Assembly (NCBI RefSeq): GCF_050314255.1
Contig: NZ_JBNPMZ010000003.1
Coordinates: 62,204-126,203 of the forward strand
DNA from: Sporofaciens sp. SGI.106
GTDB lineage: Bacteria > Bacillota > Clostridia > Lachnospirales > Lachnospiraceae
Reading direction: 5' to 3'
Length of the DNA stretch: 64,000 nucleotides
Shown: positions 17,568 to 53,200 of the stretch, piece by piece
Layout of the letters: each line of letters starts with the position of its first letter
Position numbering within the stretch: the first letter of the stretch is position 1
Notes under the pieces: model-generated
Database searches by the model: none
Seen by the model: the letters and a program-made list of their open reading frames with translations, nothing else
Told to the model about the DNA's origin: nothing
Program-made: the position numbers and the translations under genes

Positions 17568-17780
17568 TTTCATTATACGAAAAATCGCAACAATTTACAA
17601 CTTTTCTTATCTGAAATGTAAAAAATTGGATACATATGAGAGATGCTCTCGATACTCTGACCGACTGTACAGTCGATTAGAAAATAAGATTTATGAGTAT
17701 TATTAACCAGAATGGTCTTATCAAATCCTCAGATGAATTAAAGAAATTATATCAAAAATTTTGTTATATGTCAACTTTTA
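17568..17780. repeat. second copy of the 213-bp segment (see 14208-14420)
   Basis: Direct sequence comparison. Confidence 0.75.
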
Positions 17781-18881: not shown

Positions 18882-18907
18882 TTTCTCCTGATTATTCTTA
18901 CTGTCTT

Positions 18908-20356
18908 TTATTCATCCAACCAGAGCTGTGCGCTATAGCCACCGAAATTCTCACCCGGTGAGAACCAGCACTCGAAGGATGTGTTATAGAACCGGTAATT
19001 TCCGTCGGAATAATAATACCTGTATTCACAGCTGTTAAGATCCTTATCCAGATTCTGGTTCCACTCATCCAGCGTATAATAAGTTGACTCCATGAAAAGG
19101 TAATCCCCATCAATAAATTTTGCTCCATTATTGACATATTCAGACATCTCTGTCTCCCATGTGCGAAGATTCACTCTGCCCAAATGATACTGTTCAAAAT
19201 CCTCTGTTGTATCAAAATACAGATATTCTCCGCAGATCACAGGATTATAAGAACGTACCTCTGTGATCTTCTTCTCGATCTTCTCTCCCACATGGTAAAC
19301 GTGAAGCGTCTCTCCATCCGCATCATCCTGAAATACGATCCATCCGTCTCCCACCTGATACGGGTAGTACACTTCCCTGTCATCAATGATCGGTGTGATA
19401 TTCTTACCATCCAGATCCATAGAACAGTAATGATGGTTTTCATCCGTAAAATATAGTTTCCCGTCGTAGACCTGCTGATACTCTACAGCCTTATCATACA
19501 GAAACTCCGTCTTGTTGTTCTTTACATTAATTTTGACAATACCCAGATTTTTCTCTCCGTTTACCGTAGCATATACATATCCTTCCTCATACTGGAAGTT
19601 AGCCGGATTACAAATCTCGCCGTCAAGAAGAGCCTGCACATCATCCAGGACTACATCTGAACCGTCTTTGCTGATCTTGGCACAGGCAAGCTTTCCATGG
19701 GCTTCATAGCCATATGCCATGTCATCTGCAACAATGGCGTAGCCGCCACTGGAAAAGGCACTCATTTTTCTCACATCTTCCTCGGTAAATTCCGGAGCAA
19801 AGTTGTAAATGCTGACCTTGGGCTCACCCGCATACTCAAACTGGTACGCCTCGTCACCCTCTCCTGCTGCTGATTTTAGAGTCAGGATGAGGATCTCGCC
19901 GTCAAAGGCTGCCGCCGCGCCGCTGTAGGATTCTGTCACCTCCGGATTCTCAAGGGTAAGCGTATAGCTGTCATTCTCTTCTGTCCACAACATCGCCAGT
20001 TCCGCTGTTCTTTCTTCCCCTTCTTCGTCCTCCTCTATCACAGAAAAAGCACAGTTCCCTGTCTCCCATCCTGTGAAAGAGATCGTAGCAAGCATGTCGT
20101 ATCCCAGCAGTTCCTTACAGTCCTCACTGGTCAGCGTTCCCAGATCATCCGTTGTCATAGACGTACACTTCCACTGACCTACGATGTCGCCCGCCTCATG
20201 TGCCGGTTTCTCCGGCTCAGCCTCCTCTTCTGATTCCTTTTCTTCCTTTGCCGTATCTTCCTTCGGTGCTTCTTTCTTGTCAGAACCGCAGGCACACAGG
20301 CCAAGCACCATCGACAATACCAATAATACTGTCAACAGTTTTCTTTTCATAAACAA
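18908..20356 (-). CDS. lipoprotein, hypothetical (possibly beta-propeller-like)
   Basis: Signal peptide plus lipobox LGLCACGS. Acidic linker. Repeated aromatic-rich segments. Confidence 0.55.
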   Translation of the reverse strand: MFMKRKLLTVLLVLSMVLGLCACGSDKKEAPKEDTAKEEKESEEEAEPEKPAHEAGDIVGQWKCTSMTTDDLGTLTSEDCKELLGYDMLATISFTGWETGNCAFSVIEEDEEGEERTAELAMLWTEENDSYTLTLENPEVTESYSGAAAAFDGEILILTLKSAAGEGDEAYQFEYAGEPKVSIYNFAPEFTEEDVRKMSAFSSGGYAIVADDMAYGYEAHGKLACAKISKDGSDVVLDDVQALLDGEICNPANFQYEEGYVYATVNGEKNLGIVKINVKNNKTEFLYDKAVEYQQVYDGKLYFTDENHHYCSMDLDGKNITPIIDDREVYYPYQVGDGWIVFQDDADGETLHVYHVGEKIEKKITEVRSYNPVICGEYLYFDTTEDFEQYHLGRVNLRTWETEMSEYVNNGAKFIDGDYLFMESTYYTLDEWNQNLDKDLNSCEYRYYYSDGNYRFYNTSFECWFSPGENFGGYSAQLWLDE

Positions 20357-20370
20357 CTTCCTCCCTTCTG

Positions 20371-21636
20371 TCAGAATTTTCCTCCACTTCCTCCATGCGT
20401 CGTTCCGGAAGAGCTGGTATGAGTACTGCTTCCTCCGCTGTCCTCTTTTACAATTTTTCTTTGTGTCACGGTCTTATTCACCAAGCGATCCCAGTTAGCA
20501 GTCAAGATCATGCTTCCCGGCACAGCATAATCACGCGCATTCGTCTTTCTTACGACTGATTTCAGGCTTGCCTTCTTCTTCGTGCCGAGAATAAATGCAA
20601 TCACAATTCCGATCAGCACAGAGATGGGAATCATAACCGGAGAAATGGTACCTTTGGGGAGATTTCCCTTATCATAAGGTTCTCCGGACTTTGCCTGTGT
20701 AATAAATTCATCACAGAGCGTAGCATATTTTGTAAATGCCTCGCTGTAAAACCCGTCACTGAGCAACGGGGTAAATTTGTCAGCCATGTAGTCCATGCCT
20801 GCATCGGTGAATGCGGTAATTCCATAGCCACAGGTACTCATATGCCAGTCACGTTCCTCCATGCTGATAAGCAACAGGATACCGTCCCTGTTTTCTCCGA
20901 ATCCATAACCGTTATAATCATAGAAATCATCGGCGTATTCCATGGCTGTTCTGCCTTGTAAACTGTCCGTCGTCACCACCACGACATCACACTGCTGCCG
21001 CTCACTGATCTCGTCAAGCATTGCCAGAAGCTCTTCTTCTTCGGAATCGGTCAGAAGGTCTCCGTTATCCACCAGACGCGACTGAAGTCGTTCAGTAGGA
21101 ATGCCGCCTGCCTCCGGCTCTTCAGCCTCTGCCTGAGCCTCAGCCTGAGCAGCCTCCAATGCAGCTTTATCCATGACGATTCCTGTTTTTACTTCCAGTA
21201 TCTCCTGTGCCTTATCCAGATAAGCGTCTACAGCCTCATCATAATATCCGTAATAATCATATTCCGCCCACAGTGCGTCCTCATCTTCAACCGTAATAAG
21301 ATCTACCGCACTTCCGGACTTATACAAGTACCACTCCTGATCCTCCGTACTCTCGATCAGCATGATTCCGTCCGCTTCTCCGAAGCATCCCTGATAGATC
21401 TGCTCAGAATAAGCCACTGTTCCCTGTCCTCCGGTTGACTCTGTCAGCAGGATGCTCACAGTGAACCCATAAGTATCTGAAATCACAGATGCCTTCGCAT
21501 TCAATTCCGGTATAAAACCGGTCACACATCCCCGCTGATCGATTATATAGAGCATACTGTCAACGGCTGATACCGGAAGCACCATAAGGAGCGCCAGGAG
21601 AACTGTTAAAAATATTGATACGATCCGTTTCTTCAT
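20371..21636 (-). CDS. TPM-domain protein (YgcG/UPF0603-like), signal peptide, C-terminal TM and Gly-rich tail (cassette A)
   Basis: Signal peptide. Two TPM-like units (GxxLxLxxxxxxDxxxx pattern, DDFYDYNGYGFGE..GILLLISMEERDW). TM helix. GGSSTHTSSSGTTHGGSGGKF tail. Paralog at 29481-30299. Confidence 0.75.
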   Translation of the reverse strand: MKKRIVSIFLTVLLALLMVLPVSAVDSMLYIIDQRGCVTGFIPELNAKASVISDTYGFTVSILLTESTGGQGTVAYSEQIYQGCFGEADGIMLIESTEDQEWYLYKSGSAVDLITVEDEDALWAEYDYYGYYDEAVDAYLDKAQEILEVKTGIVMDKAALEAAQAEAQAEAEEPEAGGIPTERLQSRLVDNGDLLTDSEEEELLAMLDEISERQQCDVVVVTTDSLQGRTAMEYADDFYDYNGYGFGENRDGILLLISMEERDWHMSTCGYGITAFTDAGMDYMADKFTPLLSDGFYSEAFTKYATLCDEFITQAKSGEPYDKGNLPKGTISPVMIPISVLIGIVIAFILGTKKKASLKSVVRKTNARDYAVPGSMILTANWDRLVNKTVTQRKIVKEDSGGSSTHTSSSGTTHGGSGGKF

Positions 21637-21649
21637 CTATATGTCCCTC

Positions 21650-22762
21650 CTAAAACAGCAGCAGCCTTATCCACAGCAGAGCATAGATAAGTGCTCCGAT
21701 GATTACGCCTCTTGCCGTAACATATTTCCAGAATGCTCCGTTATCCGCCGGAAGGTCTCCTACCATCTTACCGGTCTGTCCATTCATGGCAAAGATATAT
21801 TTCTCACCCTTCCATGTAGTATTCAGGATCCATACCGGATACAGCGCATACAGGTACCGCGCATTGTAGATGTTCACATTACTCTCTACCGGTGTCACAG
21901 AATGATATCCCGTCACTGTATCTTCAAATGACTGCTGCGCACTTTTTTTGATCCGCTCCTTTGCCCGCACCAGTCGTTCTTCCATGTCCACATCGTAGCG
22001 GTCAGCCACGTATCCTGCCAGATAGGCTGGCTGGAACGGTACTGCTTCCGAAAAGTCATACGGCTCAATAGATTCCATCAGATCATCATCCATCTTTCTG
22101 GAACCATCTGCGGGGATATGCTCAAAACGGATGCCTCCGGATCTCTTCACCTGATAATGTTCATGCTCCGTGTATTCAATATCTCCGCTTTCCCATACCT
22201 GCACACGCTCCGCACTATATGTAATATCTGCCTTTGTATCTGCATCAAACAACCAGAACGGCACATACACACCCTTGATCTCATCAATATGGTTCTCCTG
22301 CTTAAACACCTTCGGCAGGAACTTCTTTCCATGCAGGTGCTTATGATAAGCCTCCTTTGCAGCCTTCTTATCCAGCTTGAAGGGGATGATATAGTCCGGC
22401 TTCAGATCTCCTGAGAACTGTCCCTTCATAACCACACGGTTCCCGCAGAACGGACAGCTTGTAGCTCCGGTATTCTCATCTGCCACGATCTCGCCGCCAC
22501 AGGATTCGCAGGCATATACCCTCATGCCGTTTGTCTCGCCTTCACTCCACTGTCCATCACTGGCTGCCTGCCAGTTCACATCATCCGAAGCACTTCCGCC
22601 CGGTGCATTTTCTGCACCGTCCTGTTTTCCCTGCTGCGTCTGCTGGAATTCTTCAATGCTCATCTCTGTATCACAGTACGGACATTTCATCTTCTGGCTC
22701 TTACTGTCAAATTCCATGGCACCACCACAGGCCGGACATTTATATTCCATTATGTCAGACAT
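21650..22762 (-). CDS. double zinc-ribbon protein with C-terminal TM anchor (cassette A)
   Basis: CPACGG...CPYCDT and CESCGG...CPFCGN zinc ribbons. C-terminal hydrophobic helix. Paralog at 30321-31385. Confidence 0.7.
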   Translation of the reverse strand: MSDIMEYKCPACGGAMEFDSKSQKMKCPYCDTEMSIEEFQQTQQGKQDGAENAPGGSASDDVNWQAASDGQWSEGETNGMRVYACESCGGEIVADENTGATSCPFCGNRVVMKGQFSGDLKPDYIIPFKLDKKAAKEAYHKHLHGKKFLPKVFKQENHIDEIKGVYVPFWLFDADTKADITYSAERVQVWESGDIEYTEHEHYQVKRSGGIRFEHIPADGSRKMDDDLMESIEPYDFSEAVPFQPAYLAGYVADRYDVDMEERLVRAKERIKKSAQQSFEDTVTGYHSVTPVESNVNIYNARYLYALYPVWILNTTWKGEKYIFAMNGQTGKMVGDLPADNGAFWKYVTARGVIIGALIYALLWIRLLLF

Positions 22763-22783
22763 AGCTTTCTCCTTTCCTGCATG

Positions 22784-23725
22784 CTAGCAGATATCATTTA
22801 TATCAAAAGGATCTCCGCACTGTGGGCAGAATTTCGGAATATTATTAGGATCTTCCGGAACCCACCCGCACTTGTCACATCGAACCATTCTTCTTTGTTG
22901 CTGCATGCCCTGCTGCATTCCCTGGTTCATCCCATTCATCTGCTGACCGTACATTCCGTTATTCATCATGCCGCCCTGCATTCCCTGATTCATTCCATTC
23001 ATCTGCTGACCGTACATTCCGCCATTCATCATGCCGCCCTGCATTCCCTGATTCATCCCATTCATCTGCTGGCCATACATTCCGTTATTCATCATACTGC
23101 CCTGCATTCCCTGATTCATTCCGCCCATGGGCTGAGCACAGCCGGTAAGAGCTGCCACGATCTGATTTCCTGTATTTTCCATCATCATCATCTTGTTACG
23201 GTCACTATCCTCAATAGAAAATGTATTGAGCTGGAAGTCCATGTCGTCAAACCACGGAGAGTTTACTCCGATCTTGATCCAGTAATCATAGGAATATTTG
23301 TATCTCGGCGGATTGTAGCTTCTCATATTACCGTCATTGTCCTCATACTGCTCTTCATCACAATCCTGCTTAATCTCCAGTCTGCAGCTGGTTATCTGGG
23401 AAAGTGAAACAATATCCGGATTGGTATCAACACTCATTCTGGTAGCAATTGCGAACTGTCCCTTTGTATCGTCAACAAAAACATGATAGCGTTCTCCTGC
23501 CAGATCCCTGGTAATCTGGAAATTTTTTACCTTTGCTTTGTTGGCTTCACGGTAAGCCAACTGCTCTTTAATAGATGCGACGGTGCTGTGGCGGCGCTCT
23601 TCAAACCACGGGGAAAGCTTCTTTGCACATTCTTTACAGAGGTTACCGTCATCCAGCTTCCGGTTACCAAGCATTCCTATCTTTTCTCCACAAATATCAC
23701 AGTATTTCTTATCAAATAATCCCAT
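22784..23725 (-). CDS. DUF4428-like zinc-ribbon protein with M/G/Q/N-rich 21-aa repeats and C-terminal zinc ribbon
   Basis: [15 protein letters not shown]...CKEC N-terminus. Four [21 protein letters not shown] repeats. C-terminal [31 protein letters not shown]. Confidence 0.6.
22894..23135. repeat. 63-bp tandem direct repeats x4 (coding, inside the DUF4428 gene)
   Basis: ctgcattccctgRttcatYccattcatctgctgRccRtacattccg... recurring at 22912, 22975, 23038 and 23101. Confidence 0.8.
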
Positions 23726-23744
23726 ATTCTTTTCCTCCTTTTGC

Positions 23745-25166
23745 TTATACTATGTCGTTCTCATTAAAAGGATCTCCGCACTCCGGACAGAATCTCGGTG
23801 GATTCTTCGGATCTGCAGGCTCCCATCCGCACTTGTCACAGCGGTATAATGGCGCTCCTGCCGGTTTCTTTGCTCCGCATTCCGTGCAGAACTTTCCTTT
23901 ATTGACTGCTCCACAGGAACAGGTCCAGCCTTCCTCAGTCGGTTTCGGAGAACCACACTCCGGACAGAATTTACCGGTAACCGTTGCACCGCAGGAGCAT
24001 TTCCATGCATCTGCCTTCACTGGTTCCGGCTTTTTAGCCCCACACTCCGGACAGAATTTGCCGGTTGCTGTTGCCCCACAGGAACACTTCCACCCTGCCG
24101 GAACCGCTGCTGCAGGTGCAGCCTGTTGCTTCATCTGCTGTGCCTGCTGCATCTGTTGCTGCTGACCCATGGCAAACAGATTCTGTGCATTTATGCCGCC
24201 TGCCTGCTGAGCCATTCCCATTCCCATAAATCCCATCATAGCTCCGTTTGGATTATTTGCCGCTGATTTCATTGCCTCAGACTGTGCTCCAACCAGTGTT
24301 GCTGCTGCCATAGTAGGATCTCGCATGATGGCTGCCCTCTGTGCCTGCTTGATCATCTCTGCATCCTCTTCCGGAAGTGTGATCGGATTCATCGCAATAG
24401 ACACAACAGAAAGTCCTCTAAGTTCTACCCATTTTTTTGTCAGTGCCTCGTTCATTGCCTCTGAAAGCTCTTCCGCATGTCCCGGAAGTGCACTCGGGCG
24501 GATCTGAAGCTCAGAAATTTTTGCAAATGCCGGCTGGAGAGCACTGATAAATTCCGTCTTTAACTGACTCTCAATCTCTTCCCGATTATATTCCTGCTCC
24601 ACATTTCCGCACACGTTCGTATAGAACAGAAGCGGGTTGGTAATTTTGTAGGAATAAACGCCGGAACACCTTACAGATACATCAATATCCAGACCGATAT
24701 TGCGGTCTACTACCCGGAACGGAATCGGATTCGGTGTGCCGAATTTATTATCGATCAGTTCCTTTGTATTAAAGTAATACACCCGCTGATCTTTCCCGGT
24801 ATCTCCTCCATACGTAAAACGCTTACCTATGGTCCTAAAAGTTGCTTTAATACTGTCTCCCAGGTCTCCTGCAAAGATACTTGGTTCTGTAGATGTGTTA
24901 TATGTATATTCACCGGGTTCAGCACACACTTCAACAATCTTTCCCTGTTCTACGATCATCATGCACTGTCCGTCTGCCACAGCAATGCCGGAACCGTTGG
25001 AGATAATATTGTCATTCCCTTTCGTATTGGACGAACGTCCTGTGATCCGTTTCTGCCCTTTTTTCACCATTACATCTTTGTCCAGCGCTTCGCAGTAGAA
25101 AAATTCTTTCCACTGATCTGCCATTGCACCGCCAAATGCTCCCATTCCTGCTTTGATAAGTCCCAT
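23745..25166 (-). CDS. SPFH/band-7 domain protein (COG4260-like) with four C-terminal zinc ribbons (cassette A)
   Basis: [13 protein letters not shown]...ADQWKEFF N-terminus typical of this SPFH family. Three [18 protein letters not shown] repeats plus a terminal [31 protein letters not shown]. Confidence 0.8.
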
Positions 25167-25246: not shown

Positions 25247-25636
25247 TTATAATGAATCCAGCGCCGCCGCAAGATACTCGGCTGTCACAGAAGCATAGAA
25301 AAATGCGTCAATCTTTCCTGCCTGCTTCGCCCGCATTACATCACGTGCCAGCTCCGGATATGCTATCTCATCACAGAGCAGCACCATCTTACACGCAGAC
25401 AGCTCTCTGCGCATTTTATCAATCAATGCTAACCGTCCCTCCAGTCTGGTCTCCAATGACGAGGGTGTCACATCCATTAATAATATGTCTGGTCCGGCAG
25501 CCTGGCATTCAATCAGGATCATCTCCTGCTGCCGTGGCGGAACATATAGCGGATGAAAATCGCCGGTCTGTTTCAGCATCAAATAAACACTTTCCGCAAA
25601 AACACGATTAGAGATACTGATTGCAATTTTCTTCAC
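25247..25636 (-). CDS. degenerate receiver (REC)-like domain protein
   Basis: ILLMDV aspartate context and a K near the C-terminus, but it lacks the N-terminal acidic pair. Stand-alone 129 aa. Confidence 0.35.
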   Translation of the reverse strand: MKKIAISISNRVFAESVYLMLKQTGDFHPLYVPPRQQEMILIECQAAGPDILLMDVTPSSLETRLEGRLALIDKMRRELSACKMVLLCDEIAYPELARDVMRAKQAGKIDAFFYASVTAEYLAAALDSL

Positions 25637-25868
25637 TTTCTTTTCCCCTTTCCATAAAACTTCTTACTTTAGACACACTTTATTCCTCATATTATTTTCA
25701 GTCTATTCTATATACCATTATATGAGATTCTGAAAATTGTACATGACACGAAAGTACTATAAAGGAACAAAGAGTTCCGCCCATGGAGGGTTTTTGCTTT
25801 ATGGAAACGCAGTTTCCTATAGAGCAAAAAAGATTGCGCACCAGGCGCAATCTCAGACACTGCAATCT

Positions 25869-26498
25869 CTAATCAATATTTACTACAATTCCGCTGACCC
25901 TTGCCTCAATAGCAAGTTCCGTCCTGCTTCCACATCCGGTTTTTTCCATCATATGACGAATGTGATTCTTCACAGTATTTTCTGTGATTCCAAGCTTCTG
26001 TGCAATGATGGCATTGGACACCCCTGTCGTCATTACACGAAGCACTTCCAGCTCCCGCTCGGTAAACTCCCCGCTGTTGCTAAGACCTAATTTTACCATT
26101 GGCACATGATCCGGATAAACCGATTCTCCAGCCATTGTCCGGTCCATCACTTCGAGAATGGTCTCACTGGATGCCTCCTTAAACCAGAAGCTTTCGATGC
26201 CTATTTTCCGCGCCCTGTTAAGCCAGGATGCTTCCGGCATAGACGTAACAGCAATGATTTTTATATTCGGACGGTTCTTCTTGATTCTTGCAGCAGCTTC
26301 CAATCCATTGGATCCATCATTCATTAAAATATCCATAAGCACAAGGTCAATCGAGTTCTTCAGTACAAAGGTATCAGCAAAGGCCGCCGATTCTATTGCA
26401 TATACCAACTCATAGTTTTCTGATGACTTTACATACATCTCAAAAAGCTGTCGTGAGATATATTGATCATCTACAATCATTACTCTTGTTCTGCCCAT
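25869..26498 (-). CDS. response regulator, NarL/LuxR family (LiaR-like)
   Basis: REC domain (VMIVDDQ...LVLMDILM) plus LuxR HTH (LTERELEVLRVMTTGVSNAIIAQKLGITENTVKNHIRHMMEKTG). Confidence 0.85.
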   Translation of the reverse strand: MGRTRVMIVDDQYISRQLFEMYVKSSENYELVYAIESAAFADTFVLKNSIDLVLMDILMNDGSNGLEAAARIKKNRPNIKIIAVTSMPEASWLNRARKIGIESFWFKEASSETILEVMDRTMAGESVYPDHVPMVKLGLSNSGEFTERELEVLRVMTTGVSNAIIAQKLGITENTVKNHIRHMMEKTGCGSRTELAIEARVSGIVVNID

Positions 26499-27802
26499 TC
26501 CTCTTCATCCCCTTTCGGAAGTAACACCCGCAGTACAAAACGGGGCATACTCTCTATCTTCATGTCTCCACCTGCCGATTCTACCATATGACGAAGATTT
26601 TTTAAACCTCCGGTCTCTCTGATCTCGCCAGCCGGAGAGTGCCCGTTGTTGGAAAGCTCTGCCATAATATTCCTGTCACTTTGTCTGACTGCAATAATCA
26701 ATCGGTTACCGTCTGCATGCTTAACTGTATTTGTCAGGCATTCATGGATTGCAGCCATCAGAACGGCTCTGTTCTTCTTATCTTCCGGAAATTCCCCGTC
26801 TCGAACAAGAGCCACATCCACAGATTCTGCCGCCTCCAAAAGCATCTCCCAGTCATTATTCTGCGCTGGCAGCGCAGCCTCATTCTTCATCACAGAAATA
26901 GTATGTCTCCATAAAATCAGCAGTTTATCGCGGTCCCTCATCTTTCCTGACTGAGCAAGGTAAGAACGAAATGCAAGCAATGACCGCCCCACATCGTCAT
27001 GCACCCGCATCTTTGCAGCCAAAATCTCCTTCTCTCTTGTGATATGTTCTACCTCCCGGCTGTACCTGCGCAGTCTCTCATTTACGCAACTAAGCGCCTC
27101 ATTTCGTTCCTCCAGCTCTCTCCTAAGCCCATACTGCTTTGTCACATCGTAAGCCACCAGCTCCTGTAATCTCTGATGTCCTACCTTCAGTATGTTCCTG
27201 TGAAAATCCCAGACCTTTTCGTCTCCGGTCCGGGCAATTACAGTTGGCTCTGTACGAATGATCTCACTGTCTTCTCCGACTGTTTTTCTTTTCAGTCTGT
27301 CAAAAAACAACTCACCATTCAAAATCTCCGTGTCAACCAATTCTCCACTAAGTTTTTGCATCTGTTCATTAACCAGAAGTGGCTGTCCATCTTCAGCAAA
27401 AAAACAGATTCCGTCCGGCAGTGCATCAAGACTCTCTTTAATAGCATCAGGTGTCAGCATATTTTTACGTTTCTGCTTAATCTGGATAATAAATTTCACT
27501 TCAGCAATACTTATCACCGTCATAAGGAAGACAATCCCTAACCACGGGAGATTTCCCACCACAATAGCAAAAAATGAAAACGAAAACCCACATTCCAAAC
27601 TTATGCCTGTATCCGCAAGTCCCTGCAATAAAAACAAGGCTGACAGCGCCAACATACCGGAAATCCCCCGGTATTTCCATTGAAGCTGCATTACATAGGA
27701 ATTTACAAAAATCAGCAAAGCCGCTGTTAAAACCAGCACCCCACATATTCCAAGCGGCAATATCTGCATACTGGAAAGCTCACGGCATATCGTCATAACC
27801 AT
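26480..27802 (-). CDS. sensor histidine kinase, HisKA_3 (NarX/LiaS/DesK) type
   Basis: Multi-TM N-terminus. H-box RVHDDVGRSL. HATPase_c C-terminus (ECLTNTVKHADGN...GGLKNL). Overlaps the RR gene by 19 nt. Confidence 0.85.
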   Translation of the reverse strand: MVMTICRELSSMQILPLGICGVLVLTAALLIFVNSYVMQLQWKYRGISGMLALSALFLLQGLADTGISLECGFSFSFFAIVVGNLPWLGIVFLMTVISIAEVKFIIQIKQKRKNMLTPDAIKESLDALPDGICFFAEDGQPLLVNEQMQKLSGELVDTEILNGELFFDRLKRKTVGEDSEIIRTEPTVIARTGDEKVWDFHRNILKVGHQRLQELVAYDVTKQYGLRRELEERNEALSCVNERLRRYSREVEHITREKEILAAKMRVHDDVGRSLLAFRSYLAQSGKMRDRDKLLILWRHTISVMKNEAALPAQNNDWEMLLEAAESVDVALVRDGEFPEDKKNRAVLMAAIHECLTNTVKHADGNRLIIAVRQSDRNIMAELSNNGHSPAGEIRETGGLKNLRHMVESAGGDMKIESMPRFVLRVLLPKGDEEEWAEQE

Positions 27803-29472
27803 TCACCTCCCAATGGCAAAGCAAGAGAAATATACTCTGTCTGCTGATCCTTTTCTATCTCCAGCGTTCCATGTAATTTTTCAATCTTATCCTGAATACT
27901 GCGATTTGACAGCACCTTCCTCGGATTGTTCAGTTCCATTCTTAAAGCAAGTACGTCTTCCGATATATTCAGATTAACAAGTACCGCATCTGTACCGGGA
28001 ATCCCCGCTTCCAGTACCGCCTCAACCAGTTCATATGCTGTCAGGATACTCTCTCCCGGAAGGGTTCCTTTCACACGATAGGACCCATAAGTCTTAATTC
28101 CGTACAGTCGCACATATTCCAGTGATTCTGCAATCGCCAGATGAAGCTCTTCGCCATGAATCTCCCGCCCCTGATGACAAAGAAGCAAAAGATTCGAATG
28201 GCGTTTAATGTATGCATTCAGAATACAGGCAAATTTCATTGTCTGCTCAAACTGCTCTTCTTCAGACGAAAGACCATCCAGCAAACTGCTCAGTCTGTCA
28301 ATCTGAAGACGGACACTCTCTGTAATACTGTCATATAATTTGTTCTGCTGCTCAATACGAAACCGGCTCTCCGCCAGTTTATTTTCCGCATCCAGCATAG
28401 CATTTTCTTCAGCCAGTACATCTCCCAGTTCTTCAAGCTCCCGATTCAGATGATTAATCTCTGAAATATCTCTGGTCCAGTACCCATAACCTCCCTGTAC
28501 TGCATGGCTTCTCAGACTGACATTGCCATCCTTAAGCAATACTTCATGTTCCTGCGCTTCCAGGATCTGTTCCGGGGATGGTGACACATTCTGTTCCGAG
28601 CGATAGCGGATCACTCCATCTTTATCCATAATCCCTGCACCTATTGACGACGCATTCCAGAAGTCACCGTATCCGTCATTCGAAGGAAGAAGATGTGTCG
28701 CGATAAGTCCCTCCATAAATGCGGCAAATATCACGCAGACCATTTCCGGTACCCTGAACATAAATTGCAGAATATTATCCGGATCAACAAAAAACATCAC
28801 AAGATAACAGATTCCAACACCTAACGGCACCAGTGATATCCAGACCTTTCTGCGCCTTCCCGGTACGGCACACCGAATCAGTACAATCGCCAATATGGCA
28901 GTGAAAAGCACAAAAATCCACAGCAGAGCTGCAAAATAAAATGGACCATGTATATATGGTGTATCACTCGAGTTTATCATACCCTCCGGGAACCGAAATG
29001 CCAGCTGGTGCATATCGTTGGTCAGAATTCCGGCTGTAATAATAATCGCAGGTATGTAAAGCAGTTTCCACAACCGACTGATGGGACGGTCATACGGACG
29101 CCCAATATAAAGTACTGAAAAAAACATCAGAAGCACACAAAATGTCTGAGGAATGTAGTACAGATACCAGGCATATCGCTCTGTAAAATGTCCCCTCAAA
29201 AGGAACATATACTTTACAGTCCGAAGCCCCATCCAAAAAACCATCAGATATGCAGCCGCAATTAGATTCCTTCGCACTTCCGGCTGAAGAACACGCCTTC
29301 TGATCTGCGAGATCCAGATAAACGCTGCTGTCGAATAAAATGCATAAATAATAATATTATGAGTAATCTCTGTTCCGTACAGCAAAAGACGTGCCACGCC
29401 GGAAAACAACACCAGCATAATACAGACTGTATTCAGAATTTTCGTTTCTTTACTTCCAGCATAATTTAACAT
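27793..29472 (-). CDS. multi-pass membrane sensor protein with coiled-coil and degenerate histidine-kinase-like C-terminal domain
   Basis: About 8 predicted TM helices, then a coiled-coil (LNRELEELGDVLAEENAMLDAENKLAES). A C-terminal ATPase-like region with no clear H-box. Confidence 0.4.
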   Translation of the reverse strand: MLNYAGSKETKILNTVCIMLVLFSGVARLLLYGTEITHNIIIYAFYSTAAFIWISQIRRRVLQPEVRRNLIAAAYLMVFWMGLRTVKYMFLLRGHFTERYAWYLYYIPQTFCVLLMFFSVLYIGRPYDRPISRLWKLLYIPAIIITAGILTNDMHQLAFRFPEGMINSSDTPYIHGPFYFAALLWIFVLFTAILAIVLIRCAVPGRRRKVWISLVPLGVGICYLVMFFVDPDNILQFMFRVPEMVCVIFAAFMEGLIATHLLPSNDGYGDFWNASSIGAGIMDKDGVIRYRSEQNVSPSPEQILEAQEHEVLLKDGNVSLRSHAVQGGYGYWTRDISEINHLNRELEELGDVLAEENAMLDAENKLAESRFRIEQQNKLYDSITESVRLQIDRLSSLLDGLSSEEEQFEQTMKFACILNAYIKRHSNLLLLCHQGREIHGEELHLAIAESLEYVRLYGIKTYGSYRVKGTLPGESILTAYELVEAVLEAGIPGTDAVLVNLNISEDVLALRMELNNPRKVLSNRSIQDKIEKLHGTLEIEKDQQTEYISLALPLGGEWL

Positions 29473-29480
29473 ATTCCCCG

Positions 29481-30299
29481 TCAGAATTTTCCGCCTCCGC
29501 CTCCGTGTGTTCTTCCTGATGAACTGGTGTGAGTGCTGCTTCCTCCACTGTTTTCATTTCTCTCAATCTTCCTGGTTGTGACGGTCTTATTCACCAGATG
29601 ATCCCAGTTTTTTGTAAGAACCATACTTCCCGAAACCATATAGTCCTGCGCCTGTGTATTTTTAACCACTGATTTCAAAGCTGATTTTTTTATCATACCA
29701 ATAATAAGCGCAATCACAAATCCAATCAACAGATCCACGAATATCCAGAAAGCCGGAACCGTTCCTTTGGGAAGATTTCCCACATCATATGGCTCCCCGG
29801 TCCTTGCCTGTGTAATAAAATTGTCGCAAAGCTCTGCATATTTTTCAAATGCGTCACTGTAATCTCCGTCACTGAGCATTGGTAAGAATTCATCTGCCAC
29901 ATACTCTATACCTGCATCAGTCAGTGCTGTAATTCCGAAACCACAGGTAGAAATATACCAATCTCTTTCCTCCATACTGACCAGAAGCAGGATACCGTCT
30001 TTTTCCTCGCCGAACCCATAACCATTATAATCATAGAAATCATCGGCATATTCCATGGCACTCTTACCATCCAACCCGTCGACCGTCACTACTGCAACAT
30101 CACATTCCTGCCGTTCACTGATCTCATCGAGCTGCTCCAAAATATCTGCCTCTTCCTCATCTGTCAGGAGATCCGCTTCATCTACAAGACGCGGCAAAAG
30201 CCGCTCGGGTGGCATTTCTTCCACTGCTGCTGATACCGGAAGTACTGTGGAGAAAATCAAAATAACTGTAAATAATATCGTAAATAACCGTTTCTTCAT
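29481..30299 (-). CDS. TPM-domain protein (YgcG-like), signal peptide, TM and Gly-rich tail (cassette B)
   Basis: C-terminal two-thirds near-identical to 20371-21636 (DDFYDYNGYGFGEEKDGILLLVSMEERDW...GGSSTHTSSSGRTHGGGGGKF). Confidence 0.8.
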   Translation of the reverse strand: MKKRLFTILFTVILIFSTVLPVSAAVEEMPPERLLPRLVDEADLLTDEEEADILEQLDEISERQECDVAVVTVDGLDGKSAMEYADDFYDYNGYGFGEEKDGILLLVSMEERDWYISTCGFGITALTDAGIEYVADEFLPMLSDGDYSDAFEKYAELCDNFITQARTGEPYDVGNLPKGTVPAFWIFVDLLIGFVIALIIGMIKKSALKSVVKNTQAQDYMVSGSMVLTKNWDHLVNKTVTTRKIERNENSGGSSTHTSSSGRTHGGGGGKF

Positions 30300-30320
30300 T
30301 TTCCTGTCCGCCCTTCCATT

Positions 30321-31385
30321 CTATATCAGCATGATTACCCACGTGAGAGCATACAGGATTGCCCCTGTAATTACTCCCCATGTTGCAACAAATCGCCAGA
30401 AAGCTCCTTTGTCTGCAGGAAGATCACCTACCATCTTTCCGGTCTGTCCATTCATGGCAAAAGTATATTTTTCACCATTCCATGTAGTATTCAGAATCCA
30501 TACAGGATATAGCGCATAACTATATTTTGCATTACAGATATTTACATGACTCTGTGCCGTCATCACGGAATGATATCCTGTTACTGTATTTGCAAATGAA
30601 TCCTCTGCACTGCGTTTCATTCTTTCTTCGGCACGCTTCATCCGTTCATCTTTATCCACATCATAGCGGTCGGCCACATATCCGGCCAGATATGCCGTCT
30701 GAAACGGAACAGCCTCCGAGAAATCATAAGGCTCTATGGATTCCATCAGCGTATCGTCCATTTTTACTGACCCATCCGCCGGAATGTGCTGAAAGCTGAT
30801 TCCACCGGCTCTTTGTGCCTGATAAAAGGAATGTTCCGTATATTCCACATCACCGGTTCTCCATACCCGCGTCTTCTGGGCATTATATGTAATATCTGCT
30901 TCCACATCCGCGTCAAACAGCCAGAACGGAACATAGACTCCTTTGATTTCATCAATATGGTTTTCCTCTTTGAAAATAGCAGGCAGAAACTTCTTTCCAG
31001 ATAAATGCCTGTGATAGGCTTCTTTCGCATCCTTCTTATCCAGTTTAAATGGAATAATATAGTCTGGCTTTAAGTCTCCGGCAAACTGACCTTTCATTAC
31101 TACACGGTTACCACAGAAAGGACAGGTAGTTGCACCGGTACTGTCATCTGCAATAATTTCCCCACCGCAGGATTCGCAGACATAGATGTGCATTCCATCC
31201 GTCTCACCCTCCTGCCAGTTTCCGTCACCTTTTGCCTGCCAGTCTGCCTGCTGTTGCTGCATCTGCTGATACTCTTCAATACTCATCTGTGTATCACAAT
31301 ACGGGCATTTCATCTGCTGGCTCTTACTGTCAAATTCCATGGCTCCGCCACAGGCAGGACATTTATATTCTATTATATCTGACAT
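30321..31385 (-). CDS. double zinc-ribbon protein with C-terminal TM anchor (cassette B)
   Basis: Paralog of 21650-22762 (MSDIIEYKCPACGGAMEFDSKSQQMKCPYCDTQMSIEE...). Confidence 0.7.
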   Translation of the reverse strand: MSDIIEYKCPACGGAMEFDSKSQQMKCPYCDTQMSIEEYQQMQQQQADWQAKGDGNWQEGETDGMHIYVCESCGGEIIADDSTGATTCPFCGNRVVMKGQFAGDLKPDYIIPFKLDKKDAKEAYHRHLSGKKFLPAIFKEENHIDEIKGVYVPFWLFDADVEADITYNAQKTRVWRTGDVEYTEHSFYQAQRAGGISFQHIPADGSVKMDDTLMESIEPYDFSEAVPFQTAYLAGYVADRYDVDKDERMKRAEERMKRSAEDSFANTVTGYHSVMTAQSHVNICNAKYSYALYPVWILNTTWNGEKYTFAMNGQTGKMVGDLPADKGAFWRFVATWGVITGAILYALTWVIMLI

Positions 31386-31399
31386 AGATTTCTCCTCTC

Positions 31400-32602
31400 C
31401 TAACGGATGTCATTTTCATTAAAGGGATCACCACATTCCGGACAGAATTTCGGAGGATTCTTCGGATCTGCAGGCTCCCAGCCACATTTATCACAGCGAT
31501 ATAACGGAGCTGCTGCAGGTTTCTTCGCCCCACACTCTGTACAGAATTTGCCTTTATTTACCGTTCCACATGTACAGGTCCAGCCTCCCTGTTGCTGCTG
31601 TCCCATGGCAAACAAATTCTGTGCATTTATGCCACCTGCCTGCTGAGCCATGCCCATTCCCATGAATCCCATCATGGCACCATTGGGATTATTTGCCGCT
31701 GCTTTCATAGCATCAGCCTGTGCTCCTGTAAGTGTTGCAGCTGCCATAGTAGGATCACGCATGATTGCAGCTTTCTGTGCCTGCTTGATCATCTCAGCAT
31801 CTTCTTCCGGAAGCGAAATGGTATTCATAGCTATGGATATAACAGAAAGCCCGCGAAGCTCTGCCCATTTTTTTGTAAGAGCCTGATTCATTGCCTCTGA
31901 CAGCTCCTCTGCATGACCCGGAAGTGCATTCGGCCGAATCTGCAGTTCGGAAATTTTTGCAAATGCCGGTTGAAGAGCACTGATAAATTCTGTTTTTAAC
32001 TGGCTTTCAATCTCTTCGCGATCATATTCCTGTTCCACATTTCCACACACATTTGTATAAAACAGAAGCGGATTAGTGATTTTATAAGAATAAACACCGG
32101 AACATCTGACAGATACATCAATATCCAATCCAATATTGCGGTCAACCACCCGGAACGGGATCGGATTCGGTGTGCCGAATTTATTATCCATCAATTCTTT
32201 CGTGTTAAAATAATAAACGCGCTGATCTTTTCCCGTATCTCCACCATACGTGAAACGTTTTCCAATGGTCCGGAAGGTTGCTTTAATGCTGTCTCCGAGA
32301 TTTCCCGCAAAAATACTGGGCTCTGTAGATGTATTGTAGGTATATTCTCCCGGTTCTGCACATACCTCTACAATCTTTCCCTGCTCTACAATCATCATAC
32401 ACTGGCCATCTGCCACCGCAATTCCCGATCCGCTGGAAATAATATTGTCATTCCCTTTCGTATTGGAAGAACGACCGGTAATACGCTTTTGTCCCTTTTT
32501 CACCATCACTTCTTTGTCCATTGCCTCGCAGTAGAAAAACTCCTTCCACTGATCTGCCATTGAACCGCCAAGAGCTCCCATTCCTGCTTTAATAAGTCCC
32601 AT
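31400..32602 (-). CDS. SPFH/band-7 domain protein (COG4260-like) with two C-terminal zinc ribbons (cassette B)
   Basis: N-terminus more than 90% identical to 23745-25166. C-terminal [18 protein letters not shown] plus [31 protein letters not shown]. Confidence 0.8.
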   Translation of the reverse strand: MGLIKAGMGALGGSMADQWKEFFYCEAMDKEVMVKKGQKRITGRSSNTKGNDNIISSGSGIAVADGQCMMIVEQGKIVEVCAEPGEYTYNTSTEPSIFAGNLGDSIKATFRTIGKRFTYGGDTGKDQRVYYFNTKELMDNKFGTPNPIPFRVVDRNIGLDIDVSVRCSGVYSYKITNPLLFYTNVCGNVEQEYDREEIESQLKTEFISALQPAFAKISELQIRPNALPGHAEELSEAMNQALTKKWAELRGLSVISIAMNTISLPEEDAEMIKQAQKAAIMRDPTMAAATLTGAQADAMKAAANNPNGAMMGFMGMGMAQQAGGINAQNLFAMGQQQQGGWTCTCGTVNKGKFCTECGAKKPAAAPLYRCDKCGWEPADPKNPPKFCPECGDPFNENDIR

Positions 32603-32605
32603 ATC

Positions 32606-33232
32606 TTATCTTCCTTTCGTTTTTACTTTTCCGGAATTTTTCCGTTTCTCAGGTCTTCCGGTTTTCTTCTTTTTCACAACACTGTACCCAAATGTCCCTA
32701 TCTTCCTGCCAAGGCCAAGATATGTCCCGTGGGAATAAGCCAGAAGGCCCGTATCGTTCAGTTCGAACTTTCCGTTTTCCTTCATATATGCCTCATCTAC
32801 ATGAACTGCCACAACCTCCGCCAGAAACATATGATGACTTCCAAGCTCTTTTATTTCCACCACACGGCACTCAATATTTACCGGGCTTTCTTTTATAAGC
32901 GGAGCATACTGAAGCTTCTTGGCCTTCTCCGGTGTCAGCTTCATTTCCTTCCACTTATCACCATCTCTTCCGGATTTCACTCCGCACCAGTCCGTTGCCC
33001 GCGCCAGCTTCTCCGTCGTAAGATTCACCACAAATTCTTTTGTTTCGCGTATCATACGGTAGGAATACCTCTCCGGTCTCACAGATATATAGAGCATGGG
33101 CGGGTTGGTACACACCGTCCCCGTCCATGCTACTGTGATAATATTCTGATTTCCTTCCCGGTCTGCAGCACTTACCATAACCGCCGGAAGCGGATAAAGC
33201 ATATTGCCTGGTTTCCATGTTTGCTTTGCCAT
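32606..33232 (-). CDS. flavin reductase-like (FMN-binding split-barrel) protein with Lys-rich C-terminal tail
   Basis: MLYPLPAVMVSAAD...NIITVAWTG...PPMLYISVRP pattern typical of the flavin reductase-like domain. Tail KKKKTGRPEKRKNSGKVKTKGR. Its stop is 3 nt from the SPFH-B start. Confidence 0.65.
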   Translation of the reverse strand: MAKQTWKPGNMLYPLPAVMVSAADREGNQNIITVAWTGTVCTNPPMLYISVRPERYSYRMIRETKEFVVNLTTEKLARATDWCGVKSGRDGDKWKEMKLTPEKAKKLQYAPLIKESPVNIECRVVEIKELGSHHMFLAEVVAVHVDEAYMKENGKFELNDTGLLAYSHGTYLGLGRKIGTFGYSVVKKKKTGRPEKRKNSGKVKTKGR

Positions 33233-33249: not shown

Positions 33250-34896
33250 TTACTGTTGCAGCGCTCCCACCAGCGTTGGTATCAGCTGCTTCTTACGGGA
33301 TACCACACCCTTTAATATCATGTGAGATCCATCTTCCGGCAGATTGAAGGCGTCAATGATCGGTGCTTTTGCTCCCTGACCACAGCAGAGAAGCTCTGTC
33401 GATTCATCCAGAATGTCCGTCAGCATAAAATAAATCATATTCAGATTATGCTCTTTCAATGCTTTTGGAAGATGCGGTGTCAGCATTTCCTTGATTTCTT
33501 TCAATTCATCCTTACTCATGGAATTGATCTGGCCCACACCAAAGACCTTTTCTCCCACCGTAAACTGCTTGAAATCCTGGAAACAGATTTCCTCCGGTGT
33601 CTTTCCCTTAAGATTGCTTCCCGCATTGAACATCTCTGCAGCCAGCTCATCCAGATTGACATCTGCAATCTTCGCAAGCGTCTGTGCAGCCAGTTCATCT
33701 ACCACCGTACAGGTTGGGGAGCGGAATAACAGTGTATCTGACACAATAGCGGAGCAAAGCAGTCCGGCTATCGTCGGTGTAATCTCCACACCTGATTCCT
33801 GATACATCTGATAGACAATCGTAGCCGTACATCCCACCGGCTGATTCCGGAAAAATACCGGTCCCATTGTTTCAATATTTCCCAGTCTGTGGTGATCGAT
33901 GATCTCCATGATCTCTGCTTCTTCAATACCGTCCACCGCCTGAGATTTCTCATTATGATCCACCAGAATCACCCGCTTCTTGCTCACACTCATGAAACGG
34001 CGTCTGGAAATAAATCCCTTGAAATTGCCATGACGATCCAGGATCGGGAAATCACGGTATTTCTTCTGAGTCATAACTTCCTTAATGTCATCTACATAAT
34101 CATTCATCCGGAAAGTCACCAGCGGTCCCTTACTCATAAAATATTTCACCGGAATACTCTGATTAATAAGCCGGGCTGCCGTAAATGTATCATAAGGAGT
34201 TCGTATAATAACAATACTCTGCTCCTCTGCCTTACGGATCAATTCCTCCGAAACCTCTGCATTCTGGCAGATGACCATACAGCTGGCATCGATATTAACC
34301 GCGCAGGCCTGAGATTCATAACGGTTTCCCAGAATTACCAGGTCATCCTTCTGTATAAATTCCTGCATCATATCCGGGCTGGACGCACCGATGGTTACCT
34401 TTCCTTTTACAAAATATCCATGCTCGTTTCCCGTCACCAGAGTTCCATCCAGAGTTTCAATAATATTCTTATACTGGGTTCTTGCCTCTGCAAGAATCGT
34501 ACTTCCATACACATCCATATAAGATGTAGCAATATCTCCTGTAGAAATAACACCCATCAGCTCTCCATCCTTCAGTACCGGAATCGTCTTTACCCCTTCT
34601 TTTTTCATTAATTCCCAGGTATCTTTGATGGACACATTCGGTGCAACACCTTTGATCTTATGAATATCCATATCCTTTACCTGCAGCTTTACATCTGCAA
34701 GATATCTTGGCGCATCCACCTTAAATCTGCGGAGCACATACTGTGTCTCCTCATTAATCTGACCGGCCCGCTTTGCGATATAGTCTCCTCCGGTCATTTC
34801 TCTCTTCAAATGTGCATATGCAATGGCGGAACAAATGGAATCTGTATCCGGATTCTTGTGTCCCACTACGTATATTTTCCCTGATTTTTTTTCCAT
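33250..34896 (-). CDS. ppaC: CBS-domain-containing manganese-dependent inorganic pyrophosphatase (family II, DHH/DHHA2)
   Basis: YVVGHKNPDTDSICSAIAYA DHH N-terminus. CBS pair insert. DHHA2 region with GGGHxxAAG-like motif (GQGAKAPIIDAF...). Confidence 0.85.
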   Translation of the reverse strand: MEKKSGKIYVVGHKNPDTDSICSAIAYAHLKREMTGGDYIAKRAGQINEETQYVLRRFKVDAPRYLADVKLQVKDMDIHKIKGVAPNVSIKDTWELMKKEGVKTIPVLKDGELMGVISTGDIATSYMDVYGSTILAEARTQYKNIIETLDGTLVTGNEHGYFVKGKVTIGASSPDMMQEFIQKDDLVILGNRYESQACAVNIDASCMVICQNAEVSEELIRKAEEQSIVIIRTPYDTFTAARLINQSIPVKYFMSKGPLVTFRMNDYVDDIKEVMTQKKYRDFPILDRHGNFKGFISRRRFMSVSKKRVILVDHNEKSQAVDGIEEAEIMEIIDHHRLGNIETMGPVFFRNQPVGCTATIVYQMYQESGVEITPTIAGLLCSAIVSDTLLFRSPTCTVVDELAAQTLAKIADVNLDELAAEMFNAGSNLKGKTPEEICFQDFKQFTVGEKVFGVGQINSMSKDELKEIKEMLTPHLPKALKEHNLNMIYFMLTDILDESTELLCCGQGAKAPIIDAFNLPEDGSHMILKGVVSRKKQLIPTLVGALQQ

Positions 34897-52789: not shown

Positions 52790-53200
52790 CGCAATCTTTG
52801 CGCGCGAGCGGACTGCAAAGCAGTGTTTTCATCTCCGCAAGCTGCGCATCATCGCACGAAGTGCTTTTTTATGTAGCAGGAAATTCCAGAAGAATTTCCT
52901 GCTACATAAAAAGCCCTAAGCCAGATATAGCTTAGGGCGAATCTTACAATCCGTGTTACCACCTAAATTCAGAGAATGTCTTCTCTGCACTCTGCCAATA
53001 CGGGAATCTGCCTGCTGTTCTTTCCTTATACAGCTGCCACTCCGATACTGCTCCCCTTTAACGCTGGGACTGCGTTGAAGTCTACTGGCATCCACTACGA
53101 TTCTACAGGCAGATGTGTTCGGTTCACTGCTCAAAGGCTACTTCCATAAGCACTTCATAAGGATTCTCACCGGCCATCCTCTCTCTTTGCTTCCGAATAC
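52790..53200 (-). promoter_or_regulatory. T-box leader with intrinsic terminator upstream of ilvB
   Basis: Minus strand AAUUUAGGUGGUAACACGG (T-box consensus AAnnnGGGUGGnACCGCG) at 52951-52969. Terminator GCCCUAAGC-loop-GCUUAGGGC-UUUUU at 52908-52938. An additional 22-bp perfect hairpin at 52866-52912. Confidence 0.6.

Follow-up and report, generated by a model that had tools for sequence, protein, structure and literature searches.

A predicted envelope-signalling module with a pseudo-kinase and a pseudo-receiver in Sporofaciens sp. SGI.106

The analysed region is a 64-kb window of DNA from Sporofaciens sp. SGI.106 (Lachnospiraceae), and all coordinates given for this organism are positions in that window. 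Four of its genes encode a membrane protein (P559), a histidine kinase (HK440), a response regulator (RR209) and a small receiver-like protein (R129). HK440 and RR209 look functional by their conserved residues, and the locus raises the question of what two proteins that resemble a sensor kinase and a receiver, but seem to have lost the catalytic residues of both, would do beside them. We consider it moderately probable that the four proteins constitute an envelope-signalling module, in which the live HK440-RR209 pair is tuned by a dead paralogue of each partner.

The four open reading frames (ORFs), their overlaps of 10 and 19 nucleotides (nt) and the gap of 232 nt were found exactly as given in a preliminary description of this DNA, all on the minus strand:

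27793-29472, minus strand: ORF of P559 (559 amino acids, aa), a putative pseudo-histidine kinase with seven transmembrane helices (7TM)
26480-27802, minus strand: ORF of HK440 (440 aa), with a 10-nt overlap with the P559 ORF
25869-26498, minus strand: ORF of RR209 (209 aa), with a 19-nt overlap with the HK440 ORF
25637-25868: spacer of 232 nt between RR209 and R129
25247-25636, minus strand: ORF of R129 (129 aa), GTG start, a putative stand-alone pseudo-receiver

The true start of HK440 is likely Met3 (ATG at 27796-27794), which has a GGAGGTG ribosome-binding site 7 nt 5' of it and creates a 4-nt stop/start overlap (ATGA) with P559. The same overlap recurs in 55 of 84 related loci. All four families are conserved and clearly under selection, with homologues numbering from hundreds to thousands. 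P559, RR209 and R129 are identical to proteins on record for this organism, where P559 is annotated as "histidine kinase N-terminal 7TM domain-containing protein" and R129 as "hypothetical protein".

The kinase and regulator pair and its two degenerate counterparts

HK440 is a bona fide histidine kinase of the HisKA_3 class (DesK/NarX/LiaS/DevS type). It consists of a hydrophobic N-terminus (approximately residues 14-106), a PAS-like domain, a DHp hairpin with H268, and a CA domain. According to the hydropathy profile, a few hydrophobic segments are all that the first ~106 residues contain, with no space for a true extracellular domain; this is the layout of "intramembrane-sensing" kinases. 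The H-box RVHDDVGRSL is present as previously described, and its H268-D269 pair is invariant in 24 and in 72 relatives. In the ATP-binding domain, with its N-box Asn and its G1 and G2 glycines, E354, N358, N385, G387 and G398/G399 are invariant or nearly so across relatives. A search of the PDB with the single sequence returned the DHp and CA domains of DesK (residues 226-429, E 2e-4) and the CA domains of DosT, DevS and VraS. With a profile of 24 relatives, DesK was matched at E 3e-11 over residues 232-430 and DevS at E 8e-14, the CA domains of DevS, DosT and VraS being matched at E 1e-13 to 8e-9. In Pfam, HisKA_3 gave no match to HK440 at E < 0.1, and HATPase_c reached 18.8 bits, under its cut-off of 26.4; HK440 is too diverged for the Pfam kinase models.

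RR209 is, by its domains and active site, a canonical response regulator of the NarL/LuxR family, with a receiver and a GerE helix-turn-helix. Response_reg (E 6.5e-16) and GerE (E 1.6e-17) were both matched over their Pfam cut-offs, and D11, D56, T85, S86 and K107 are kept in 70 relatives. The closest NCBIfam models were NarL and MadR, with all scores far under the equivalog cut-offs. The pair had been called LiaSR-like, which proved right at the level of class, a HisKA_3 kinase with a NarL-type regulator, but not beyond it. HK440 is no LiaS orthologue by the NCBIfam Strep_LiaS model (22.8 bits against a cut-off of 450), and LiaF (Toastrack/DUF2154) was not found upstream of HK440, where the gene is that of the HisKA_7TM pseudo-kinase P559.

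The only Pfam match of P559 was HisKA_7TM (PF16927) at residues 48-241, with 34.6 bits against a cut-off of 28.6. HisKA and HATPase_c were unmatched in Pfam and a recognisable H-box is absent; among the 120 P559 homologues listed, no Pfam kinase domain, HATPase_c included, was found either. Sequence searches of the PDB with the single sequence or the family profile gave no meaningful match to P559. The AlphaFold2 model (mean predicted local distance difference test, pLDDT, 79.7) comprises seven transmembrane (TM) helices, a PAS-like beta sheet (279-335), a helical hairpin (337-434) and an alpha/beta domain (437-553). When this model was compared with the PDB by Foldseek, all 50 matches listed were histidine kinases or kinase-derived proteins, at E 6e-8 to 3e-5. 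They included WalK, YF1, VicK, ThkA, EL346, DesK, the ATP-less phosphotransferase ChpT, the pseudokinase DivL and a plant phytochrome kinase-related domain. P559 thus has a histidine-kinase fold (PAS-DHp-CA).

Two independent hhalign comparisons of P559 with the HK440 family gave Prob 95.5% (E 1.5e-8, 348 columns) and Prob 92.3% (E 5.7e-7). Both alignments set Tyr380 of P559 (L-Y-D) under the phospho-His H268 of the kinase (V/I-H-D). Y380 is invariant among the 30 closest homologues, and in 77 relatives with 29-99% identity this column holds Y in 68, M in 5, F in 3 and H in 1. The sole His (motif LHD) belongs to locus L081, the most distant member, and fits descent from a real kinase. The only other His of the P559 hairpin, H425, is His in just 11 of the 77. 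E488 occupies the position of the N-box Asn, ME-N-P stands where DxGxG is expected, and a deletion has removed the ATP-lid/G2 segment. Throughout the family there is no N-box Asn, G1 or G2. Because Tyr replaces the phospho-His and the ATP-binding boxes are lost, P559 most likely cannot autophosphorylate. From these alignments and the model, P559 is a diverged and apparently catalytically dead paralogue of the adjacent HK440, which agrees with the degenerate sensor that the preliminary description had seen in it.

The changes in P559 do not look like decay. D381, beside the His position, is D in 65 of the 77 relatives and lies in a highly conserved stretch (L379, Y380, D381, I383, V387, P389 and Q390). 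In the second DHp helix K423-R424-x-x-N427 is invariant, as is the Y-D surface, which points to a preserved interaction surface. The same residues could be read in another way. Bifunctional HisKA_3 kinases such as NarX and DesK use the DHp surface for phosphatase activity, and P559, with its kept DHp scaffold, its acidic D381 and the highly conserved stretch after Y380, might be a dedicated phosphatase or co-factor for RR209~P, the net output being set by the P559:HK440 ratio and the 7TM signal. The phosphatase motif of HisKA_3 kinases is DxxxQ/H beside the His. However, P559 has D381-x-x-x-K/E and HK440 has D269-x-x-x-R, so that the canonical Gln or His is found in neither, and DivL, the precedent for Tyr in place of His, is without phosphatase activity (PMC4211667). 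We regard this explanation as unlikely.

Membrane one-component regulators, in which HisKA_7TM is joined directly to GerE, adjoin the P559, kinase and regulator genes in several genomes (L001, 6932-7876; L058, 3816-4832; loci compared are numbered with the prefix L). This 7TM sensor thus serves both in phosphorelays and outside them.

R129 had no match by sequence in Pfam, NCBIfam or the PDB. Neither R129 nor any of the 120 homologues listed was matched in Pfam, the Response_reg score of one relative being 18.5 bits against a cut-off of 30.2. Its AlphaFold2 model (pLDDT 95.2) has the (beta-alpha)5 topology E-H-E-H-E-H-E-H-E-H, and the best Foldseek matches were the receiver domains of AraT, Spo0A, FrzS, DesR and DivK, with TM-scores of 0.68-0.77. 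In hhalign the R129 family was aligned with the receiver of the RR209 family at Prob 96.7% and E 4e-10, the unusual aromatic beta5 strand being covered, and this receiver is the closest detectable relative of R129. In an alignment of 35 homologues, S7 and N10 of R129 stand at the acidic pair, C88 at the Thr and A115/S116 at the Lys. The acidic pair, the Thr and the Lys are missing in all family members aligned, and position 55 is Asp in most members and Glu in several. Fold and alignment together show that R129 is a receiver-fold paralogue of the RR209 receiver with a degenerate active site, and the description of it as receiver-like without the acidic pair is borne out. The C88-D89-E90 motif at the end of beta4 is invariant, and C44 and C82 are nearly so; C44, C82, C88 and the C-D-E motif might be signs of a sensor for metal or redox state and not just of a passive decoy.

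The possibility that P559 is an ordinary, diverged but active kinase and R129 a canonical receiver, their degeneracy being an artefact of divergence, has in its favour the histidine-kinase fold of P559, the LHD of L081 and the Asp55 kept in most R129 members. It is contradicted by the alignments, because Y380 is invariant in the closest homologues, 76 of the 77 relatives have no His in that column, H425 is no general substitute, the ATP-binding boxes are lost family-wide, and R129 members have lost the acidic pair, Thr and Lys. Domain searches of Pfam returned neither an ordinary kinase for P559 nor a canonical receiver for R129. We give this possibility next to no credence.

Gene linkage, candidate operator and SPFH cassettes

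Wherever the contig is long enough, the genes of P559, the kinase and the regulator (the triad) follow one another in this order on one strand, which holds for the 85 loci examined, down to 29% identity; the three genes appear to be obligately linked. In a species scan with one genome per species, at least 552 species genomes contained a P559 relative. An exhaustive search with a hidden Markov model gave 1550 P559 clusters at 50% identity (E <= 1e-30), nearly all of ~555 aa, and mostly from gut and rumen Clostridia. A metagenome contig (L095, 4001-6886; Logan SRR8925740) contains a 961-aa ORF in which a P559-like pseudo-kinase is in frame with an HK440-like kinase (27% identity to HK440 over 437 aa, E 4e-58), followed by a regulator and then by a weak or degenerate receiver of 128 aa. 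This fusion supports an interaction of the two proteins in the Rosetta-stone sense, although it may be an assembly artefact.

R129 is less constant than the triad. It is present in 21 of the 63 genome loci that have at least 1.2 kb of sequence past the regulator gene, or about one third. Look-ups from three distant R129 homologues found the triad adjacent every time, so that R129 is a satellite of the triad system and not of SPFH genes.

A small Cys-rich protein (90-124 aa, several CxxC pairs) recurrently accompanies the system (L012, 15320-15691; L001, 14652-15020; L089, 6515-6883; L086, 1893-2165). It has no Pfam match, and in L086 it is flanked by two tandem R129 paralogues.

The spacer between RR209 and R129 contains the following elements:

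25830-25854, minus strand: intrinsic terminator after RR209, a 10-bp stem (5 G-C pairs) with a T run
about 25790-25829, minus strand: second hairpin, after the terminator, containing a GGAAAC...GTTTCC repeat
25740-25761, minus strand: candidate RR209 operator, TATAGTACTTTCGTGTCATGTA, an imperfect 7-4-7 palindrome (~20 bp)
25717-25722, minus strand: TATAAT, read from the sequence as the probable -10 hexamer of the R129-SPFH promoter

The terminator had the top score in a 16-kb scan. The 232-nt spacer folds as RNA with z = -3.9, both hairpins being present. A riboswitch or small RNA was considered and rejected, as no Rfam family exceeded its gathering threshold near the spacer.

The candidate operator emerged when the sequences upstream of R129 orthologues (region -146 to -16) were searched for motifs de novo. 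Its 3' end lies 17 nt upstream of the -10 hexamer, which would centre it near -40.5, the position of a class II activator. This geometry is conserved across genera, with an operator-to-TATAAT spacing of 15-18 nt (17-18 in most loci), and TATAAT stands at the same distance in L002, L004, L007, L009, L020 and L074. In a scan of the 64-kb window with a position-weight matrix, 25740-25761 was the only strong site (21.8 bits), against a mean of 0.5 sites at >=14 bits in shuffled windows. At loci outside the training set we found 16 sites in 82 kb within 1.5 kb past the regulator gene and 9 in 1512 kb elsewhere, a 33-fold enrichment (p = 3e-15). The half-site variants follow variants of the RR209 recognition helix (ENT..HIR with GTGTCAT, EST..HIH with GrTTCAT and ENT..HIQ with GGTGAT). 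This co-variation fits binding by the cognate RR209, with shared ancestry as a confounder.

A search for LuxR-box-like repeats in the spacer had been proposed. The visible GGAA-N7-TTCC repeats (25764-25778 and 25803-25817) were rejected as LuxR boxes, since they are absent from 25 of 25 orthologous R129 upstream regions and form part of the second hairpin; the conserved candidate at 25740-25761 is a different element. Matrix sites of 12-14 bits at 24474 and 31910 were also rejected as operators, because the same coding sequence occurs in both SPFH paralogues and in L001, which indicates coding conservation or chance. Autoregulation of the system's own operon was likewise discarded: there is no operator 5' of P559 or SPFH400 in the window, and only loci such as L034 have one.

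The terminator and the operator both lie upstream of R129, which is followed by the downstream SPFH cassette:

23745-25166, minus strand: SPFH473, with Band_7_1 and zinc ribbons (Pfam)
22784-23725, minus strand: DUF4428 protein (Pfam)
21650-22762, minus strand: ZnR370, a double zinc-ribbon membrane protein
20371-21636, minus strand: TPM421, a TPM protein
18908-20356, minus strand: DUF5050 lipoprotein
17919-18881, minus strand: X320, a 320-aa protein

Within this cassette (17919-25166) the intergenic gaps are 13-80 nt and contain no terminator, and the 80 nt past R129 are also terminator-free. R129 is hence the first gene of the downstream SPFH operon, co-transcribed with SPFH473. Its earlier placement as a stand-alone gene between the two cassettes is not sustained by this arrangement.

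On the other side of the triad lies the upstream cassette:

29481-32602, minus strand: cassette SPFH400-ZnR354-TPM272, with SPFH400 at 31400-32602, ZnR354 at 30321-31385 and TPM272 at 29481-30299

It is separated from P559 by 8 nt. Judging from this gap, it belongs to the same transcription unit as P559-HK440-RR209, and would be co-transcribed with the triad, not visibly controlled by it. The order SPFH-ZnR-TPM-P559-HK-RR recurs in a Solobacterium metagenome-assembled genome (L034), where an operator-like site lies 55 nt 5' of the SPFH gene. About 22 of 85 loci have SPFH, zinc-ribbon, TPM or DUF4428 genes no more than 8 kb away from the triad. The proposal that the system controls the flanking SPFH modules has comparative support from the conserved operator and this recurrent neighbourhood. 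In the window there is evidence of control for the downstream cassette only, the upstream cassette being co-transcribed and having no operator.

The operator stands directly upstream of SPFH genes in L028 and L034. In other genomes the genes behind it vary: SPFH modules, surface LRR/fn3 proteins, DUF6935, small membrane or Cys-rich proteins and, in some, a solute-binding protein with a membrane GerE regulator. What these genes have in common is a relation to the cell envelope and not SPFH in particular.

This variation bears on a further explanation, according to which R129 has no part in the two-component circuit, where P559 would be the sole kinase accessory, but serves the SPFH/YdjGHI-like module, perhaps as its adaptor or assembly factor. 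R129 is indeed co-transcribed with SPFH473 in the window and is directly 5' of SPFH, zinc-ribbon or TPM genes in L002, L069 and L082, and its conserved C44, C82 and C88 with the invariant CDE suggest a role other than kinase docking. However, R129 also occurs behind the regulator without an SPFH module: in L004 and L092-94 small membrane proteins follow, and in L089-91 a solute-binding protein and a GerE membrane protein. The constant neighbour of R129 homologues is the triad, not SPFH, and the nearest detectable relative is the RR209 receiver. We therefore think it improbable that R129 works for the SPFH module.

The two cassettes are related to each other. SPFH473 and SPFH400 share 94.7% protein identity over their first 284 residues, the ZnR pair 74% and the TPM pair 68%, which suggests that the cassette was duplicated and that a recent gene conversion then affected only the 5' part of SPFH. 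SPFH473 has three tandem zinc-ribbon repeats (23745-24200) that are missing from SPFH400. The DUF4428 protein contains (22784-23300) a long Met/Gln/Gly-rich repeat in several copies, then a zinc ribbon common to both SPFH proteins. An anti-phage defence role of the SPFH/TPM/zinc-ribbon cassettes was rejected, PADLOC giving only a generic helix-turn-helix similarity for the regulator.

Upstream of SPFH400, a Flavin_Reduct gene (32606-33232), whose product has a Lys-rich C-terminal tail past the domain, ends 3 nt before it and is itself preceded by a DHH-CBS-DRTGG pyrophosphatase gene (33250-34896). Both may be co-transcribed with the upstream SPFH cassette and the two-component genes. Just past the last gene of the downstream cassette, a perfect sigma-70 consensus promoter (TTGACA-17-TATAAT, extended TG; 17746-17774, minus strand) marks where the next transcription unit begins. 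All 2-kb bins of the window have a negative GC skew, and nearly all genes in the part examined are encoded by the minus strand, which is consistent with this being the leading strand here. A T-box leader (52930-53230, 110.6 bits) and a tRNA gene (58813-58885), both on the minus strand, are unrelated to the signalling module.

Comparison with known systems

The nearest precedent for P559 is DivL of Caulobacter crescentus (PDB 4q20), a pseudokinase with Tyr for His on a PAS-DHp-CA scaffold and without kinase activity, which docks the single-domain receiver DivK~P and allosterically controls the real kinase CckA (PMC4211667). P559 shares the DivL-type hallmark, Tyr (Y380) at the phospho-His position of a kinase scaffold, and DivL is among its fold matches. 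On the other hand, DivL is of the HisKA and not the HisKA_3 class, keeps a recognisable CA domain with weak ATP binding, is not 7TM and not in an operon with its target kinase, and is alphaproteobacterial and dedicated to the cell cycle. DivK, unlike R129, is a genuine, phosphorylatable receiver. In Pseudomonas, RetS, a 7TM-type sensor with a kinase-like transmitter, reportedly modulates the genuine kinase GacS by transmitter-transmitter contact, as in other kinase-kinase heteromers, and not by way of a regulator of its own. P559 resembles it in its 7TM-type input and kinase-like transmitter; RetS keeps catalytic residues and receiver domains, is unlinked to gacS and has a 7TM domain of the 7TMR-DISM family.

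Among Firmicutes, LiaF and VraT are accessory proteins of intramembrane-sensing HisKA_3 kinases (PMC7191749; PMC11237479). The present module resembles LiaFSR/VraTSR in having a HisKA_3 kinase with a minimal membrane anchor and a NarL-type regulator, overlapping genes, an extra membrane protein gene directly upstream in the operon (whose product in LiaFSR/VraTSR controls the kinase), and target genes for membrane-protecting proteins related to the Psp network. It differs in that P559 is apparently a kinase paralogue with a 7TM domain, and not of the Toastrack/DUF2154 type of LiaF/VraT (PMC11237479), in the PAS-like domain of HK440, in a YdjGHI-like SPFH output instead of liaIH, and in the added pseudo-receiver.

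For R129 the comparison is with Osp of Rhodobacter sphaeroides, a receiver-like protein that inhibits CckA in a feedback loop by acting on the transmitter domain of the kinase; expression of its gene is switched on by the response regulator of the pathway itself (PMC9430884). R129 is likewise a single-domain, receiver-like protein and is encoded by the first gene behind the predicted RR209 operator, its mechanism being supposed by analogy. It belongs to another lineage and another kinase class, and has its own conserved CDE and Cys signature.

YdjGHI/SamGHI of B. subtilis is a membrane-stress complex that recruits PspA (PMC8581546; PMC11237479; bioRxiv 10.64898/2026.02.06.704340). By architecture, both flanking cassettes match it: a Band_7_1 SPFH protein with C-terminal zinc ribbons as YdjI (Pfam), a protein with two N-terminal zinc ribbons and a C-terminal TM segment as YdjG (Pfam, hydropathy), and a membrane TPM protein with a low-complexity tail as YdjH. 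Unlike B. subtilis pspA-ydjGHI, they are duplicated and extended by the DUF4428 protein, the DUF5050 lipoprotein and the 320-aa protein. No PspA domain was found among the cassette genes scanned, and there is no pspA inside either cassette. Control in B. subtilis is by sigma-W, whereas here it would be by a two-component system.

In the literature on HisKA_7TM, Clostridia pseudokinases and three-component systems, we found no paper on the P559 family. The individual concepts are known; what is new is a 7TM Tyr-for-His pseudo-kinase obligatorily paired with an active paralogue, often with a pseudo-receiver, across hundreds of Clostridia.

Proposed mechanism and its meaning

In the module that we propose, HK440 and RR209 would carry the phosphoryl flow. 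P559, made from the same mRNA and translationally coupled to HK440, would be present in a fixed ratio to it. It has kept the PAS-like/DHp/CA scaffold and gained or kept a 7TM (HisKA_7TM) sensor, which may be the input for a membrane signal on the state of the membrane or envelope. P559 might then set the kinase/phosphatase balance of HK440 by direct contact, either in a heteromer with HK440 or through a receiver docked on the preserved Y-D surface; the closest analogies would be DivL, RetS, LiaF and VraT. Phosphorylated RR209 is predicted to bind the 7-4-7 palindrome and to activate the R129-SPFH473-DUF4428-ZnR370-TPM421-lipoprotein-X320 operon. R129, its first product and a seemingly non-phosphorylatable copy of the RR209 receiver, would most likely act in feedback on P559 or HK440 and block the site where receivers dock, by analogy with Osp on CckA and DivK on DivL. 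The gene structure, folds, paralogy, lost catalytic residues, conserved synteny, terminator and operator-promoter geometry are results of the analysis, while the contacts, the direction of regulation, the protein that binds the operator and the stimulus are inferred.

Several points weigh against this proposal. Pairwise BLAST finds no similarity between P559 and HK440, and for this reason their paralogy rests on profile and fold comparisons. The contact of P559 with HK440 or R129 is a prediction, and the single L095 fusion could be due to an assembly or sequencing indel at the 4-nt ATGA overlap. The link of the operator to RR209 depends only on proximity and on a co-variation that is confounded with phylogeny, and other GerE-type regulators are encoded near some loci. 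The matrix scan of the window found no operator upstream of the upstream cassette (SPFH400) or of P559, and since different genomes have different genes behind the operator, "SPFH controller" is not a universal role. R129 is missing from two thirds of the loci, and is either not essential to the core mechanism or encoded elsewhere. Its D55 is kept in most members, so that phosphorylation by an unusual route is conceivable.

A more speculative arrangement, which we consider quite unlikely, makes P559 and R129 a shadow pair. R129, made only when the pathway fires, would bind the Tyr-bearing DHp of P559, and the complex would set the gain or memory of HK440-RR209 according to the state of the SPFH (SamGHI-like) complex, independently of phosphorylation. 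In a bolder sub-variant, HK440 would phosphorylate Tyr380 of P559 in trans within a heterodimer, giving a Tyr switch driven by a His kinase.

Pseudo-kinases are a major theme of eukaryotic signalling, and in bacteria they are represented by a few special cases such as DivL. To these is added the large P559 family, found in at least 552 species, in which the Tyr-for-His change and the 7TM sensor go together with obligatory genetic linkage to a genuine kinase and its regulator. If the proposed module is true, it would give a general answer to the question of how "intramembrane-sensing" kinases without a sensor domain get their input in Clostridia. It would also be a natural system for the pairing of kinase with pseudo-kinase and of receiver with pseudo-receiver, and the predicted operator and regulon make the pathway testable. 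In the abundant gut anaerobes that carry it, it may also allow the YdjGHI/SamGHI SPFH membrane-stress module, so far poorly understood, to be approached through its regulation.

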